Made by a program: the position numbers and the translations under genes. Positions 38,775 to 48,499 of a stretch of 64,000 nt of DNA are shown piece by piece. The stretch is from the NCBI GenBank assembly GCA_963762115.1, contig CAVXJH010000003.1, forward strand, positions 384,001-448,000, in the 5' to 3' direction. The notes beneath the pieces were generated by a model. That model ran no database searches. It was given only the letters and a program-made list of their open reading frames with translations, and was not told the origin of the DNA. This DNA comes from Candidatus Babeliales bacterium (GTDB lineage: Bacteria; Babelota; Babeliae; Babelales; JANWKD01). Each line of letters begins with the position of its first letter. The stretch's first letter is position 1.

Positions 38775-40236
38775 CTACTCTTTACCCACATTTTTACTAT
38801 AATTAACGAGATACAGAGTTAATATATCAAAAAAAGAAAAGTAAAAAATGATTAAAGAATTGTGGGCAGCAAATGAGACTAATCGTATGTCATTAAAAGA
38901 TAAACGCAGAAATGAAAGAGTTAGAATACTTCTAGAGGCCGTTGCCGATAGCCCATCAGCAAGCATTTTACAAGCTTGCAACGGAGAAAATGCACAAGCA
39001 AAAGGTGCTTATCGTTTTCTTGCCACAACAGAAATTGATGAACAAGATATTCTCGAAGGACATTATCAAGCAACCGTCGAAAGAGCTGAAAATGCTGATG
39101 GAAAAGTCATTATTGTTAGCGATGGCATGGATGCATCTTTTAAAAATCTTAAAAAAACTTCAGGGTTAGGAACTCTATCTAATACAAAAAGTTCACTTGG
39201 AATAAAAGTTCAAAATACGTATGTATTTAGTGAAAATTTTATTCCATTAGGGCTAATAAATCAAAAGTATTGGATACGCAATAAAGAAGATTTTGGCAAA
39301 AAAAAACATAAGCTAAGGTTGCCTACAAAGGAAAAAGAATCTTATAATTGGATTGAATCAATTTATCAAATAGAAAAAAAGCTTCCTATAAATAAAAGCT
39401 ATTTATTTATAGGTGATGGTGGTGCCGATATTTATGATTTATTAACAGCAGAAAGGCGTGTAAATAGCGATTTACTCATTCATCTTGTGCAAAATAGAAA
39501 TATACAGAACGAAGAAGAGCGTCTCTTTGAATTGCTGGAAAAACAATCAGTATTAGGCGTTATAACGAAAGAATTAGAACGTACAAAAACTCATTCTAAG
39601 AGAACTGCAAAGTTAGCGATTAGAGTCAAAGAAGTCGAAATTTGTTCTCCTTTAAATCGAAAAAATGAAAAATTACCAACCATACATTTAACAGCGATTT
39701 ATGTGCAAGAAATAGAATATGACAACTCAGTAAATGATCCAATAGTATGGCGACTTATTACTACGATTAAAGTTCAATCATTGGAAGAAGCTGAAAAGCT
39801 TATTGCCCTTTACTCAAAACGTTGGCTCATTGAACGCTATCATTATATTTTAAAAGAAGGTTGTCGCATAGAAAAATTTCAAATGGAATCGGTTGATAAC
39901 CTAAAAAGAACCTTGGCTGTTTACTCAATTGCTGCCTGGCGTTTAATTTATATCACTTATCTTGCAAGAATTAAACCTGATGCCCCATGTAATTTAATTC
40001 TTACAACCGATGAAGCTGATGCGTTATATTGCACGCATCATAAAACTCTTACATTGCCCCCCAAATCTTTTTCTGTTAAAGAAGCAACTCAAATGATAGC
40101 AAAATTAGGAGGTTTTCTTGGCAGGAAAAACGATAAAGATCCTGGTGCAAAAGTTTTGTGGCAGGGATTATTTCGGCTAGAAGCCATTACACAAGCTTAT
40201 CTTTTATTTAAAGAACTAAATGTGGGTAAAGAGTAG
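38775..40236 (+). mobile_element. Insertion sequence, IS4 family (IS50/Tn5 group), apparently intact
   Basis: Perfect 19-bp TIRs ctactctttacccacattt (38775-38793) / aaatgtgggtaaagagtag (40218-40236); 10-bp direct repeat catatacgcg at 38765-38774 and 40237-40246. Confidence 0.95.
38848..40236 (+). CDS. IS4-family (Tn5-like) DDE transposase
   Basis: DKRR..R N-terminus, AYRF, IGDGGADIYD, YSKRWLIERYHYILK (Y-R-E-K signature), IAKLGGFLGRK.D.DPG...LWQG; the stop codon is the last triplet of the right TIR. Confidence 0.95.
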   Translation: MIKELWAANETNRMSLKDKRRNERVRILLEAVADSPSASILQACNGENAQAKGAYRFLATTEIDEQDILEGHYQATVERAENADGKVIIVSDGMDASFKNLKKTSGLGTLSNTKSSLGIKVQNTYVFSENFIPLGLINQKYWIRNKEDFGKKKHKLRLPTKEKESYNWIESIYQIEKKLPINKSYLFIGDGGADIYDLLTAERRVNSDLLIHLVQNRNIQNEEERLFELLEKQSVLGVITKELERTKTHSKRTAKLAIRVKEVEICSPLNRKNEKLPTIHLTAIYVQEIEYDNSVNDPIVWRLITTIKVQSLEEAEKLIALYSKRWLIERYHYILKEGCRIEKFQMESVDNLKRTLAVYSIAAWRLIYITYLARIKPDAPCNLILTTDEADALYCTHHKTLTLPPKSFSVKEATQMIAKLGGFLGRKNDKDPGAKVLWQGLFRLEAITQAYLLFKELNVGKE

Positions 40237-43740: not shown

Positions 43741-44700
43741 ATGAAATCACTATTTCTTAAAGGTTTAAACCTGTTATTTGCAGTTGCACTCTTTGCAACA
43801 ATAAATACATATGCAATGGAACAACAAGAAGAAGTTGCAGAGCCTATTTCTGCTCAAGCGCAAACTGATAATGTTATTGAACGTATGTATAATGCTTTTA
43901 GCAAACAACTTGATGAAAGATTTCCAGAAGCACCTACAAATTTTTATGAAGCAATTGTACGCCTTCAAAGCATTGCAAAATTACTTGAAAAATCTGAGAT
44001 TGAACTCTGTGAAAATTTCAACGCTACACAAGAAAGTTGTATAATAAATGGCATTGAACAACCATATCATATGCTTCATCCAATTTTTAAACATTGGTTT
44101 CAAAGCGCTTGCAACAAAACTCTTCTTGAACATACAAAATCTATTGAAGCAATTGATCTAATATTTGATTTATTAAGTAAAATAACAACAGAGAACAATA
44201 TCGAAAATTACAAAAAAGCAATTGAATCTTTGCCCCATGTTATTGCTGAATATATCAAAGAAGAATTTATTGAAATGCATGGCTGGAAATATAAAAATAA
44301 AGGCTGGCTGACTGACTTTAAACCTCAAATGACTTTTGATGATAATGAAAACATGATAAATGTCGAATTTATTAAAGATAATTATCATGTTCGTGGATAT
44401 TATTTGAAAGCAATCGATCAACCAATAATCGTTGTAATTAATTTAAATAATGGAACATATCCCTATATGGCGTTTAACGCTCATGCAACATTACCACCAA
44501 TGCTTTCAGACCTTTTGAACAATTTTTTTCATATTCCATTACCAGAAAGCGGTGTTTACCCTCCACTTTGGGAAAAACCAACATTTGAACAATCATTAAA
44601 AAATTGTATCCAAGAAAACGCTAAAACATTAATAGGAAAAATAAAAAGACAAATCCAATCAACATTTTATTCTTTTAGCGAATTTATGGATCGATTTTAA
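43741..44700 (+). CDS. Secreted orphan protein, array member 1
   Basis: Signal ending TYA-MEQ; domain PTNFYEAIVRLQSIAKL...YHMLHPIFK shared with members 2 and 3. Confidence 0.8.
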   Translation: MKSLFLKGLNLLFAVALFATINTYAMEQQEEVAEPISAQAQTDNVIERMYNAFSKQLDERFPEAPTNFYEAIVRLQSIAKLLEKSEIELCENFNATQESCIINGIEQPYHMLHPIFKHWFQSACNKTLLEHTKSIEAIDLIFDLLSKITTENNIENYKKAIESLPHVIAEYIKEEFIEMHGWKYKNKGWLTDFKPQMTFDDNENMINVEFIKDNYHVRGYYLKAIDQPIIVVINLNNGTYPYMAFNAHATLPPMLSDLLNNFFHIPLPESGVYPPLWEKPTFEQSLKNCIQENAKTLIGKIKRQIQSTFYSFSEFMDRF

Positions 44701-44755
44701 TGAAACATAATAAAAAAACTCTTATTTTTTAATTAGAACGTAGAGGAATATGTAT

Positions 44756-45712
44756 ATGAAATCACTATTTTTTAAAAGGTTAACACCTTTATTACTCACC
44801 GTTACACTCTTTGCAGCAATAAATATACAAGCAATGGAACAAGAAGAAGGACAAGAACCTTTTTCTGCTCAAGAACAAAGCGCCAATGCCGATAATGTTG
44901 TTGAACGTATATATAATGCTTTTAGCAAACAACTTGACGAAAGATTCACAGAATCACCTACAAATTTTCGCGAAGCAATTGCACAACTCAGATGTATTGC
45001 ACGATTACTTGAAGAATCTGAAGTTGAACTTCTTGAAGATTTCAACGTTACACAAGAAAACTGCACAATACATGGTATTAAACAACCATATCATATGCTT
45101 CATCCAATTTTTAAACATTGGTTCAAAAATGCTTACGAAAAAATCCTTCTTGAACATCCAAAAGTTATTGAAGCTGCTGATGTAATTCTTGAAAGATTAA
45201 GTGAAAATGTTTCTCATGAAAATATGAATAATTATGATAAAGCAATTACAAATCTGCCAAAAATTGTTACTGAATGCATCCAAGATCAATTCATTGATAT
45301 ACATGGTTGGCCACACAATATAAAACCCTCAATCACATTCAATGATTCGGGAGTAAAGCACATTTCATTTCTTCAAGATAATTATGTTTTTGAAGGATTT
45401 GGAACTGGTTGGATACATAAAACACGGTCACAACAAAGTCATTTAGAAAATATCAATAATAATCCTTCAGCATGGCTTAGCCGCAGCTCTACATTGGTTG
45501 ATGGAAAATTAGCAACAGGAATTGCATACGAATTAGGATTAGCTGAAGAAATAAACGGAGATATTAAACCATTAAAAGCCTCTAATGATAAAGAAGAACC
45601 AAGTGGTGTATTACCACCTCTTTGGGAAAAACCAACATTTAAAGAAGCTCTTAAAAAACGAGCTGAAGAAAATAAATTAAAGAAAAATAGAAATAGATGT
45701 ATTATAAGTTAA
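44756..45712 (+). CDS. Secreted orphan protein, array member 2, C-terminal CaaX box
   Basis: Signal ending IQA-MEQ; paralog of member 1; ends KKNRNRCIIS-stop. Confidence 0.8.
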   Translation: MKSLFFKRLTPLLLTVTLFAAINIQAMEQEEGQEPFSAQEQSANADNVVERIYNAFSKQLDERFTESPTNFREAIAQLRCIARLLEESEVELLEDFNVTQENCTIHGIKQPYHMLHPIFKHWFKNAYEKILLEHPKVIEAADVILERLSENVSHENMNNYDKAITNLPKIVTECIQDQFIDIHGWPHNIKPSITFNDSGVKHISFLQDNYVFEGFGTGWIHKTRSQQSHLENINNNPSAWLSRSSTLVDGKLATGIAYELGLAEEINGDIKPLKASNDKEEPSGVLPPLWEKPTFKEALKKRAEENKLKKNRNRCIIS

Positions 45713-45755
45713 AATCCATCTAGCATTTTTTAATCATATAGAAGGGACAATTTTT

Positions 45756-47624
45756 ATGAAATTATATATTAAACAGGGCAAAAAGGCCTTATTACTTTCT
45801 CTCGTATTATTTACCGGAATCACACTCAATGCAATGGAACAACAAGATAAGCCTGAATATAGTTCTTTCGTTGATAATCTAGAGATAGTACTAAAAAGAA
45901 ATAACAAACAACTCTGCGCAAAGCTTCTTCATCATTTCAATGAAGAAATTGAACAAAAAGAAGTAATTGAACAAGTTTCTATAGTTGCAAATTTAATACC
46001 ATATGCTGCACAAAAAAGTAATCAAGTAACCTCTGTACTTTGCAATGCACTGGTAAAAATTGTCCAGGCTAACGACTCATTAGCCTCAATAATTAAAGAA
46101 AAGATAAATCCTGTTATTCACACTTTAGTAGCACACCAAAGAAAAAAGGCTTTAAAAAAACTTCTTTGTATATTTGCTGATAACACTGAATCGGAAGAAT
46201 ATACAAGGATTAATCAAATTATACAAAGTAAGTTACAAAAAGGATTAACCGTATTTAATCCAGAAGAAAATTCTACCACAAAAGAAGCACTAAAATATAT
46301 TTATTCTACTATTGATTTGATACAAGAATCGATATCAAACCCACAACGCACAGTAATATTCTGCAATATGTTGCTAGGTCATTTTATTAGCCAAGAAAAA
46401 AATTTCAGAACAGACATGCAAAAAATTATTTCTCCAATCATTCATCCTCTAATTCAAGCTAATAACATTGAAGCATTAAAACAAATTCGATATATTTTCT
46501 CTGATTTTAAAGATAAAGATACACAAGAATACAAAATCATACATAAAGCAATTAAAAAATATAATTCAGTAATAAAATCCAAGCAAAATGAACAGCTTGC
46601 AAAATTATCAGAAAAAAGTCCTCATGAAAAAGTTGCAACTGAAGATAACGATCAAGAATTAAACTTTGCTCGCACTGTTAGTACAAGGGAAACTACCAAT
46701 CCAAGTGCGACTACTTTTGAAAATCCAATTGATTTTATGAGATTACAAAAGGAATCTGCTGAACTTACTGGTGTTCCGCTCTCAGATGAAGAAGCTGATG
46801 CATTTTTGATTAGAATTTTAGAAGAACACATCGACAATCACCCTTCTTGCAAGAAAATACCAAAAACATTTTATGAAGCTTTAGTGCGTCTTCAATGCAT
46901 TGCTCGTTTGTTTGATAAAACTCGCTTTTATATAGGTGATATGGAAATTACAGAGAATGATTGTGTGATTAATAACTTAGTTCTTCCTCATCATATGACA
47001 AATAAAAGATTTAAACAGTGTTTTGATATTGTCAAAAATCGAACCGTACTTCTTTCCCATGAAAAATCTGTTGAAGCAATAAATATCATTCTTGAAAGCA
47101 TCAGTAAAAAAGTAAAACCAGAAACGGCAGCCGAATATATAAAAGCAATTAATTGTTTACCCTCTTTTTTTTCTCATAACATTAAAAAGCAATTTAATAG
47201 AATGATGTATCAAGAATTATATAATATTCCTTTGATAACAACGGGTTTAAATTTTATTGGTTCGTTTGTTAATTATGACATAGTAAAAACCAAAATTAAA
47301 CCTTATGAAGTTATCTTCGATGAAGAAGACAGGATAACATCATTCAAATTTAAAAAATCTGGAATTAACGTTGAAATATCTAACATACATTGGATAGGAC
47401 AGGATCCTTGGGGTAAAGCAGTTATGGGAAGTGAAACATGTTATGGTACTGATCTAAACAATTTACACACTCTTCTAAATAGAAAATTTGAGGGACGAGC
47501 AACATATTTTGATGAAAACGACTTTATTTGGCGACTAAATTTTGAAGAAATGTTACAAAAACGTGCTCATGAAAATGAAAACAAGACACAAGAAAAGCAA
47601 CAATCAAAATGCATTATAAGTTAG
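45756..47624 (+). CDS. Secreted chimeric protein, array member 3, C-terminal CaaX box
   Basis: N-terminal domain like member 4 (present twice), C-terminal domain like members 1/2; ends QQSKCIIS-stop. Confidence 0.8.
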   Translation: MKLYIKQGKKALLLSLVLFTGITLNAMEQQDKPEYSSFVDNLEIVLKRNNKQLCAKLLHHFNEEIEQKEVIEQVSIVANLIPYAAQKSNQVTSVLCNALVKIVQANDSLASIIKEKINPVIHTLVAHQRKKALKKLLCIFADNTESEEYTRINQIIQSKLQKGLTVFNPEENSTTKEALKYIYSTIDLIQESISNPQRTVIFCNMLLGHFISQEKNFRTDMQKIISPIIHPLIQANNIEALKQIRYIFSDFKDKDTQEYKIIHKAIKKYNSVIKSKQNEQLAKLSEKSPHEKVATEDNDQELNFARTVSTRETTNPSATTFENPIDFMRLQKESAELTGVPLSDEEADAFLIRILEEHIDNHPSCKKIPKTFYEALVRLQCIARLFDKTRFYIGDMEITENDCVINNLVLPHHMTNKRFKQCFDIVKNRTVLLSHEKSVEAINIILESISKKVKPETAAEYIKAINCLPSFFSHNIKKQFNRMMYQELYNIPLITTGLNFIGSFVNYDIVKTKIKPYEVIFDEEDRITSFKFKKSGINVEISNIHWIGQDPWGKAVMGSETCYGTDLNNLHTLLNRKFEGRATYFDENDFIWRLNFEEMLQKRAHENENKTQEKQQSKCIIS

Positions 47625-47662
47625 AATATATATTTTTTAAACCATATAGAAGGGACAATTCT

Positions 47663-48499
47663 ATGAAATTATTTATAAAACAAGGTAAAAACACCTTATT
47701 ACTTTCTCTCGTATTATTTACCGGAATCACGCTTCAGGCAATGGAACAACAAGGGAGCGAATACGGCTATTTAGTTGATACTCTTGATGCAGCAATGAAA
47801 TCATCAAATCCCACTGCTTGCAAAGATCTTTTCGAAAGCTTTAGTAATGATCTTAACCAAAAAGATCCAATCGAACGAGCTGCTATTGTTGTTGGCTTAA
47901 CACAAGAAGCAGCAGCGAAAAAAAATGAACAATTAACAGGGGTATTTTGCAATGCACTCGTTAGTATTTATAACACTAGCCCCGGAATAACAGAAGCAAT
48001 GCAAGAAATAATAAGCCCTGTCATTCGTCCTTTGGCAGAGCACAAACAAATATCAGCATTGGGAAAAATTCACTGTATTTTTTCTAACAATATTGAAAGC
48101 GAAGAATATAGACAAATTGATGAAGCAATTAAAAATAAATTGCACGGTAATACAACAGTAAATACTGATGAAGATGAAGCAATTGCAAGATTATTACAAG
48201 AAGAAGTTCAAAGTCCTGATGACAATTTTGCACCTAAAGATAACGATCTCAACAGGGCACTAGCATTAAGTTTACAAACAGGCAGACAAGATGACGAACA
48301 AGCAGAATTAGAAAAAGCACTGCGTGCAAGCAGATTTACCAACCCTAGCGCACCCGTACTAACAGACATCGAAGAAGATGATGCAGTATTACGTATTGCA
48401 CTCGCAGAAAGCTTACAAGTAAACACACCAAATACCAACTCAAATCCAAGCATCTGGAACAATCTCCGCAACATATTTTTAGACGGCTTTGGTAGTTAA
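47663..48499 (+). CDS. Secreted protein with tandem ubiquitin-binding motifs, array member 4
   Basis: Start MKLFIKQ at 47663; DEDEAIARLLQEE, DNDLNRALALSLQ, QAELEKALRASR, EEDDAVLRIALAESLQ. Confidence 0.8.
   Translation: MKLFIKQGKNTLLLSLVLFTGITLQAMEQQGSEYGYLVDTLDAAMKSSNPTACKDLFESFSNDLNQKDPIERAAIVVGLTQEAAAKKNEQLTGVFCNALVSIYNTSPGITEAMQEIISPVIRPLAEHKQISALGKIHCIFSNNIESEEYRQIDEAIKNKLHGNTTVNTDEDEAIARLLQEEVQSPDDNFAPKDNDLNRALALSLQTGRQDDEQAELEKALRASRFTNPSAPVLTDIEEDDAVLRIALAESLQVNTPNTNSNPSIWNNLRNIFLDGFGS

Follow-up and report, generated by a model that had tools for sequence, protein, structure and literature searches.

Two neighbouring, predicted secreted proteins of a Babeliales bacterium end in CaaX tails that suggest farnesylation by the host

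Why should two adjacent proteins of a bacterium, each with a predicted export signal, end in the CaaX motif recognised by eukaryotic farnesyltransferase? The question is raised by two genes, A and B, in a 64,000-nucleotide stretch of DNA (the window; G000:C3:384001-448000) from a Candidatus Babeliales bacterium (Babelota/Dependentiae/TM6). The source genome, G000, has a size of 1.53 Mb and a guanine plus cytosine (GC) content of 34%, and is 95% complete; its TilS has its best relatives among Babeliales/Dependentiae (80% for L030, the closest relative). All cultured members of the Babelota infect protists, and theirs is among the two bacterial phyla that have been described as entirely parasitic (PMC12172432). 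A and B are predicted to be secreted, the CaaX motif is under selection, and both are probably effectors which the host farnesylates and which are anchored to host membranes as a result. The features on which this rests are listed below, with the basis of each in brackets.

44756..45712, + strand: secreted orphan protein A, 318 amino acids, with signal peptide, Babeliales-specific helical core, variable beta region and CaaX tail
44742..44747, + strand: ribosome-binding site (RBS) AGAGGA, 8 nucleotides upstream of the ATG at 44756 (sequence)
44756..44833, + strand: predicted Sec/SPase I signal peptide of A, 26 amino acids, cut I-Q-A / M-E (heuristic call; leader hydrophobicity kept in homologs; RBS test)
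44861..45325, + strand: conserved core domain of A, about 155 amino acids (sequence searches, structure model)
45674..45697, + strand: polybasic patch KLKKNRNR before the Cys, in protein A only (sequence)
45698..45712, + strand: CaaX box CIIS and stop of A, TGT ATT ATA AGT TAA (sequence, X1 contigs)
45756..47624, + strand: secreted orphan protein B, 622 amino acids, with CaaX tail (sequence)
45756..45833, + strand: predicted Sec signal peptide of B, 26 amino acids, cut L-N-A / M-E, with RBS-like AGAAGGGA upstream (heuristic call)
47610..47624, + strand: CaaX box CIIS and stop of B, TGC ATT ATA AGT TAG, no polybasic patch (sequence, X1 contigs)

The start of A was placed at 44756 and not at 44750 because the 8-nucleotide spacing of AGAGGA fits. 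The open reading frame (ORF) of A ends in ...EENKLKKNRNRCIIS-TAA and that of B in ...ENKTQEKQQSKCIIS-TAG. An earlier note on this DNA had drawn attention to the two CIIS ends, and both are confirmed: contigs of run X1 show them unchanged (45491-45883 and 47378-47629), which makes an assembly error at these ends unlikely, although X1 may share a sample or campaign with the source assembly. No RNA record of the sequence was listed. Farnesyltransferase substrates carry Cys at position -4 and an aliphatic residue at a2, and Ser or Gln is preferred at X. Both tails have Cys at -4, an aliphatic a2 and a free C-terminus; X is Ser in both, a member of the set that the enzyme accepts (S, Q, M, A, C). 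A and B are paralogs whose tails can be aligned with each other. The tails are therefore homologous and the pair counts as one event, so the two CIIS ends are not independent. The K-Ras-like polybasic signal which the earlier note also proposed holds for A, with five Lys/Arg in the eight residues before the Cys, and not for B, which has two.

The argument for function comes from the rest of the genome. A simple script returned 1319 ORFs of at least 100 amino acids in G000, and their N-termini were classed by a heuristic n/h/c pattern. CaaX C-termini are found on 19 of 573 proteins with a signal peptide as against 5 of 642 without, a comparison made with a strict pattern that was picked after the G000 list had been viewed. 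The enrichment is made up of 14/226 proteins with a leader ending A/ME and 5/347 other signal-peptide proteins; signal-plus-membrane proteins contribute none (0/104). With the motif shifted 1-30 residues off the C-terminus, the same 573 proteins yield 0.8 hits on average and 3 at most. The 24 CaaX proteins sort into 17 families, and counting each paralog cluster once leaves at least 11, compared with 0.5. Among tails of the form x-[ILVM]-[SQMA], Cys stands at -4 in 14 of 45 (background 1.5%). Four definitions of CaaX all retain the enrichment.

Could the motif be a product of chance in an AT-rich genome, or of a DNA cassette or regulatory motif that has been copied and lies across the stop codon? 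The tails in the window do share ancestry and consist of AT-rich codons (ATT, ATA, AGT, TAA). However, the 17 families are separate, CaaX codons and stops differ synonymously between genes with unrelated flanks, the slid and residue-swap controls speak against it, and the enrichment is replicated in relatives at 27-44% GC; this origin is scarcely credible. A DNA cassette was also rejected for the window itself: the repeats in the gene cluster are ordinary paralogy, and the CIIS ends are covered by none of the 20 largest repeat families listed.

A terminal Cys might instead serve a disulfide or S-acylation by the host, or be part of a signal for secretion or degradation at the C-terminus. A few of the ends are indeed poor prenylation substrates (CTLW, CIIN, CTIG). 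Against this, the constant place of the Cys at -4, an aliphatic residue at a2 and an X that is mostly S, Q or C are the rules of farnesyltransferase, with S or Q at X in 15 of the 19 CaaX signal-peptide proteins, and the Cys excess is confined to -4, with nothing comparable at other positions from -1 to -15. Another purpose for the Cys is accordingly very unlikely. Lys/Arg directly before the Cys is enriched as well (1.42 vs 0.45), and eukaryote-type domains occur on the CaaX proteins of G000: ankyrin on 6 and WD40 on 3 of the 20 scanned.

Two other hits of the pattern stand out. A NADAR-domain protein (G000:C3:18071-18919) ends in CIIQ and has a Q/P-rich N-terminus in which a signal peptide was not detected. 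A protein that we take to be similar to ribosomal S8 ends in CSIW in G000 (C7:66437-66832) and in CSVW in L020 (4412-4807), and is a housekeeping false positive.

Since the pattern for G000 was selected with its list in view, the fair test is that in relatives, for which the pattern was fixed in advance. In 22 genomes, of which 2.8 Mb was sampled (100-400 kb samples), CaaX ends are carried by 16/941 signal-peptide proteins and 2/1214 others (p=1e-4; slid mean 1.0). Leaving out the organism's own family gives 12/687 vs 1/903. The genome-wide enrichment that the earlier note had put forward as a check is thus present in G000 and in relatives, with CaaX-positive samples from 8 of the 22 genomes. 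Ankyrin repeats are found on 9 of the 16 CaaX proteins, WD40 on one and a RING finger on one. L040 adds three A/ME CaaX proteins of WD40 type. One protein, L100:5540-7345, combines a signal peptide, ankyrin repeats, a RING finger and the end CMIS, and is a candidate membrane-anchored E3 ligase effector.

Which enzyme could use such a tail? Prenyltransferases reside in the eukaryotic cytosol. On the bacterial side, polyprenyl synthase was not found in 40 of 41 genomes searched (controls 14/14) and ICMT was not found in G000. No bacterial prenyltransferase matched, in a search that was weak: the PF00432 (prenyltransferase beta) control matched nowhere and another control only below the cut-off. 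A host enzyme would be the simplest user of the CaaX tail.

The genome does encode an Rce1-like (CPBP) protease of its own (L206, G000:C7:138571-141957), a polytopic protein of 1128 amino acids with large extramembrane domains and EExxxR and His motifs, which adjoins a CaaX gene. The tail could then be a bacterial C-terminal sorting signal for surface attachment, cut by the CPBP in the manner of myxosortase and Cys-CTERM. CPBP matches occur in 43 of 61 genomes of the order, and the form of about 1120 amino acids recurs across many Babeliales. CPBPs are common anyway (11/14 controls), however, and no CPBP match was obtained in G096 or G159, each with three CaaX proteins in its sample; owing to this decoupling the CPBP was rejected as the cognate enzyme. 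Cys-CTERM signals, moreover, combine the Cys motif with a transmembrane helix and a cluster of Arg (bioRxiv 10.1101/2023.06.07.544157). The tails here have no helix; they are hydrophilic, with Cys at -4. With no synthase found for the prenyl donor and eukaryote-type domains on the cargo, a sorting signal is highly unlikely.

Farnesylation by the host would proceed as follows. The leader is translated: of 226 A/ME proteins, 127 have an RBS-like word ahead of the leader Met and only 6 have one ahead of the internal Met. On these counts an untranslated leader, with initiation at the internal Met, was rejected. The leader would then be cut by signal peptidase, leaving a Met-Glu N-terminus. The protein would probably exit the periplasm through a conserved twin-secretin type II system, or alternatively in outer-membrane vesicles, and arrive in the host cytosol directly or through a leaky vacuole, an arrival that we infer from the cytosolic location of prenyltransferases. 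Host farnesyltransferase would attach a C15 lipid to the Cys, farnesyl being expected because Ser at X selects it. Trimming by Rce1 and methylation by ICMT, both established for CaaX substrates, would follow. The basic patch of A would favour anionic membranes (the plasma membrane or the vacuole face); B would go to endomembranes or depend on partners.

The export step can be examined from the inventory of secretion genes. Markers of type III, type IV and type VI systems were searched in G000 with no FHIPEP, VirB4-family or VipB match (controls matched; the search covered families other than the Dot/Icm-specific ones). A cluster at G000:C6:205033-213982 (L195) has the order gspC, gspD, pilM/gspL-like, membrane protein, gspD; its secretins are large (918 and 939 amino acids) with GspD as best match. 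Two type II/pilus ATPases are encoded in G000, and at least two secretins are present in 31/31 genomes, including those of 0.8 Mb. The type II inventory covered gspC, secretins, the PilM/GspL-like gene and ATPases. Among the systems searched, twin-secretin type II is the sole protein-export channel found, in agreement with PMC4378268 and PMC4776705, and A and B carry the N-terminal Sec signal peptide of type II substrates, judged by the heuristic pattern and the RBS test. Given host farnesylation, the odds that these proteins take the type II route are about even; the alternatives are vesicles and a niche that opens to the cytosol. By 3 h Chromulinavorax is seen as a mass within the cytoplasm of its host, and it releases vesicles in the food vacuole (PMC6561590), whereas Babela multiplies inside a vacuole (PMC4378268). 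A route across the vacuole, which the earlier note had taken to be implied, does not strictly follow.

Several observations, besides the CPBP protease described above, weigh against host farnesylation or type II export. The signal-peptide and CaaX classes come from heuristics and not from trained predictors. In relatives, 14 of 22 samples have no CaaX on a signal-peptide protein (G160 has 0/58), at low power with 100-200 kb each, and kin genomes are non-independent samples; 'any Cys at -4' is not significantly enriched there (22/941 vs 18/1214, p=0.15), and strong basic patches are rarer than in G000 (3/16 vs 10/19). The secretins score under the GspD equivalog cut-off, and one of them may serve a pilus (PMC4776705). 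The tail itself is present in just 6 of 19 homologs from other sources, several of which are fragments, and is missing from the three syntenic homologs in L030 and from the gene next to A.

That gene belongs to a cluster. The interval between gyrB and tilS holds four paralogous genes (43741, 44756, 45756 and 47663), all of whose products open with a basic-hydrophobic leader ending A/ME. In protein B the N-terminal part is paralogous to the 47663 ORF (44% over 197 amino acids) and the C-terminal part to protein A. The two genes without a CaaX end are:

43741..44700, + strand: paralog of protein A, 46-51% identity, no CaaX, ending ...SFSEFMDRF, as the earlier note had also seen (sequence comparison)
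47663..48499, + strand: paralog of the N-terminal part of protein B, no CaaX, weak ubiquitin-interacting-motif (UIM) matches (Pfam UIM, E 4e-4; its 20.6 bits fall short of the cut-off, 21)

The UIM-like helices are repeated within the 47663-48499 product, a signal-peptide protein and thus a possible ubiquitin-binding effector; a UIM-like regular expression showed no enrichment between protein classes. Elsewhere in the window, a 462-amino-acid ORF at 38848-40236, presumably a transposase of the IS4/Tn5 type, is missing at the corresponding place in L030.

Of 261 genomes of the phylum, 3 were found to have the family of the core domain, all three in the source organism's family. Protein searches returned 23 family sequences, 19 of them from the other sources mentioned above. 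Six of the 19 end in C-x-[IV]-[SC] (CIVS, CIIS, CIIC in three, CGIS), and two end in CLGK. The Cys is retained while the linker diverges, X is S or C in the homologs so that all swaps are to permitted residues, and Cys and aliphatic a2 persist across homologs 40-58% identical. The absence of the motif from the syntenic homologs of so close a relative as L030 shows it to be labile. At least two changes of tail state are needed on the family tree, and five on the best tree, whose resolution is poor, with 8 of its 16 inner branches open (P0018 as two rows; fragments excluded). P0002 combines a protein-A body with a protein-B-like tail. With the Cys kept in homologs, absent in L030 and gained or lost at least twice, the tail looks like a conserved but detachable address label, which would be gained, lost and swapped among paralogs sharing the core domain.

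On the same facts the CaaX class could be genuine and prenylated by the host, with the tail of A and B a dispensable relic spread by recombination among paralogs. The tailless neighbour and L030 homologs, the changes on the tree and the hybrid P0002 fit this, and local tail capture is indicated in L030, where the last 12 residues of a secreted orphan directly after gyrB (L030:5110-6009) are identical to the end of GyrB, which suggests a 3' end captured through local duplication. A relic would not, however, be expected to keep its Cys and aliphatic a2 at 40-58% identity with permitted swaps only, and the functional CaaX of AnkB has likewise been lost in some lineages (PMC5506055). The relic is thus unlikely for A and B. 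Host prenylation, as the earlier note proposed it, is well supported by the enrichment and by the permitted substitutions.

The core domain itself gives few clues. The model of protein A has a pLDDT of 70 for the whole and 85 for the core. No Pfam or NCBIfam family, PDB sequence match or Atlas match was obtained for the core, nor a Foldseek match against PDB and viral libraries. Exocyst, Munc13 and cullin helical bundles, with VIA-align Z of 6.6 or less, were judged generic and rejected as its fold. In C3:25068 the same domain lies ahead of WD40 repeats, and for this reason our best guess is a protein-binding scaffold.

The predicted cleavage site has a feature of its own. A small residue followed by Met is found there in 259 of 573 signal-peptide proteins of G000 (in the window at 44834 and 45834), against 18 in a control stretch, and Glu follows the Met in 130 of the 259, 7.3 times background. 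A mature Met-Glu start would be stable with respect to N-degrons and NatB-like in eukaryotes, or it may be an export signature.

In a Babelota genome signal peptides can be present on nearly half of the proteins (PMC6561590). It is possible, though less likely than not, that much of the Babelota Sec secretome (hundreds of A/ME proteins) reaches the host cytosol through the phylum-wide twin-secretin type II system with no injectisome. The CaaX subset would then be the first host-prenylated class of Sec/type II substrates and a built-in chemical reporter of delivery, and the Met-Glu start perhaps a signature of export or of cytosolic stability.

Until now, arrival of secreted Babelota proteins in the host cytosol, and its route, were merely assumed. 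A motif usable only by a cytosolic eukaryotic enzyme is selected on exported proteins across several families, and this is sequence-level evidence that such proteins reach the cytosol. Delivery becomes testable without bacterial genetics, as host farnesylation in infected amoebae can be read with clickable isoprenoids and mass spectrometry. If true, prenylation mimicry would be extended from injected to Sec-exported effectors.

In the full-text literature searched, mostly papers outside subscription, no report was found that ties Babelota to CaaX or farnesylation, and a prenylated Sec substrate was not described in the titles and abstract openings listed. Related observations come from the same phylum: Babela and Chromulinavorax have signal-peptide ankyrin proteins and many orphans with signal peptides that are presumed to enter the host by secretion, and type II is the sole secretion system detected in Babela (PMC4378268, PMC6561590). 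The main texts of these two papers do not contain 'prenyl', 'CaaX' or 'farnesyl', and cytosolic delivery is merely assumed in them.

Invariant C-terminal Cys residues, with an Rce1-like protease in the genome, are also known from MYXO-, JDVT-, Synerg- and CGP-CTERM proteins (bioRxiv 10.1101/2023.06.07.544157). In these the Cys is followed by a transmembrane helix and a cluster of Arg, whereas here it stands at -4 and there is no helix. For the inferred type II route there is a precedent in ProA and ChiA of Legionella, type II substrates which get out of a semipermeable vacuole and are located on its cytoplasmic face, in amoebae as well (PMC5478897). They are enzymes, not CaaX scaffolds, and lipidation is absent from the abstract of that paper.

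AnkB, the Pels and SifA, which type IV or type III systems inject, are established cases of host prenylation (PMC2916131, PMC13081727, PMC5506055, PMC5599653); PMC2916131 reports no CaaX proteins in non-pathogenic E. coli or B. subtilis. SifA of Salmonella is, like A and B on the prediction from sequence, a bacterial protein targeted to membranes by host prenylation (PMC5599653, PMC2916131). It differs as a single, type III-injected protein of unrelated sequence, modified by geranylgeranyltransferase (per PMC2916131). There is also a likeness to AnkB and the Pel/CMP proteins of Legionella pneumophila (PMC2916131, PMC13081727, PMC5506055), also a protist-infecting bacterium with CaaX on ankyrin-type and orphan proteins. 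Legionella has 7-11 CaaX proteins per genome and G000 about 19-21, and tail loss in relatives is seen in both. A and B lack the F-box and ankyrin repeats of AnkB-type effectors. AnkB and Pel are substrates of Dot/Icm type IV, which injects them into the cytosol, whereas the proteins of G000 have Sec-type signal peptides, in a genome in which no VirB4-family, type III or type VI marker was found. The feature is real, and it would act like the Legionella Pels yet stands outside the injected class, since markers for type III and type IV were not found and signal peptides are present.

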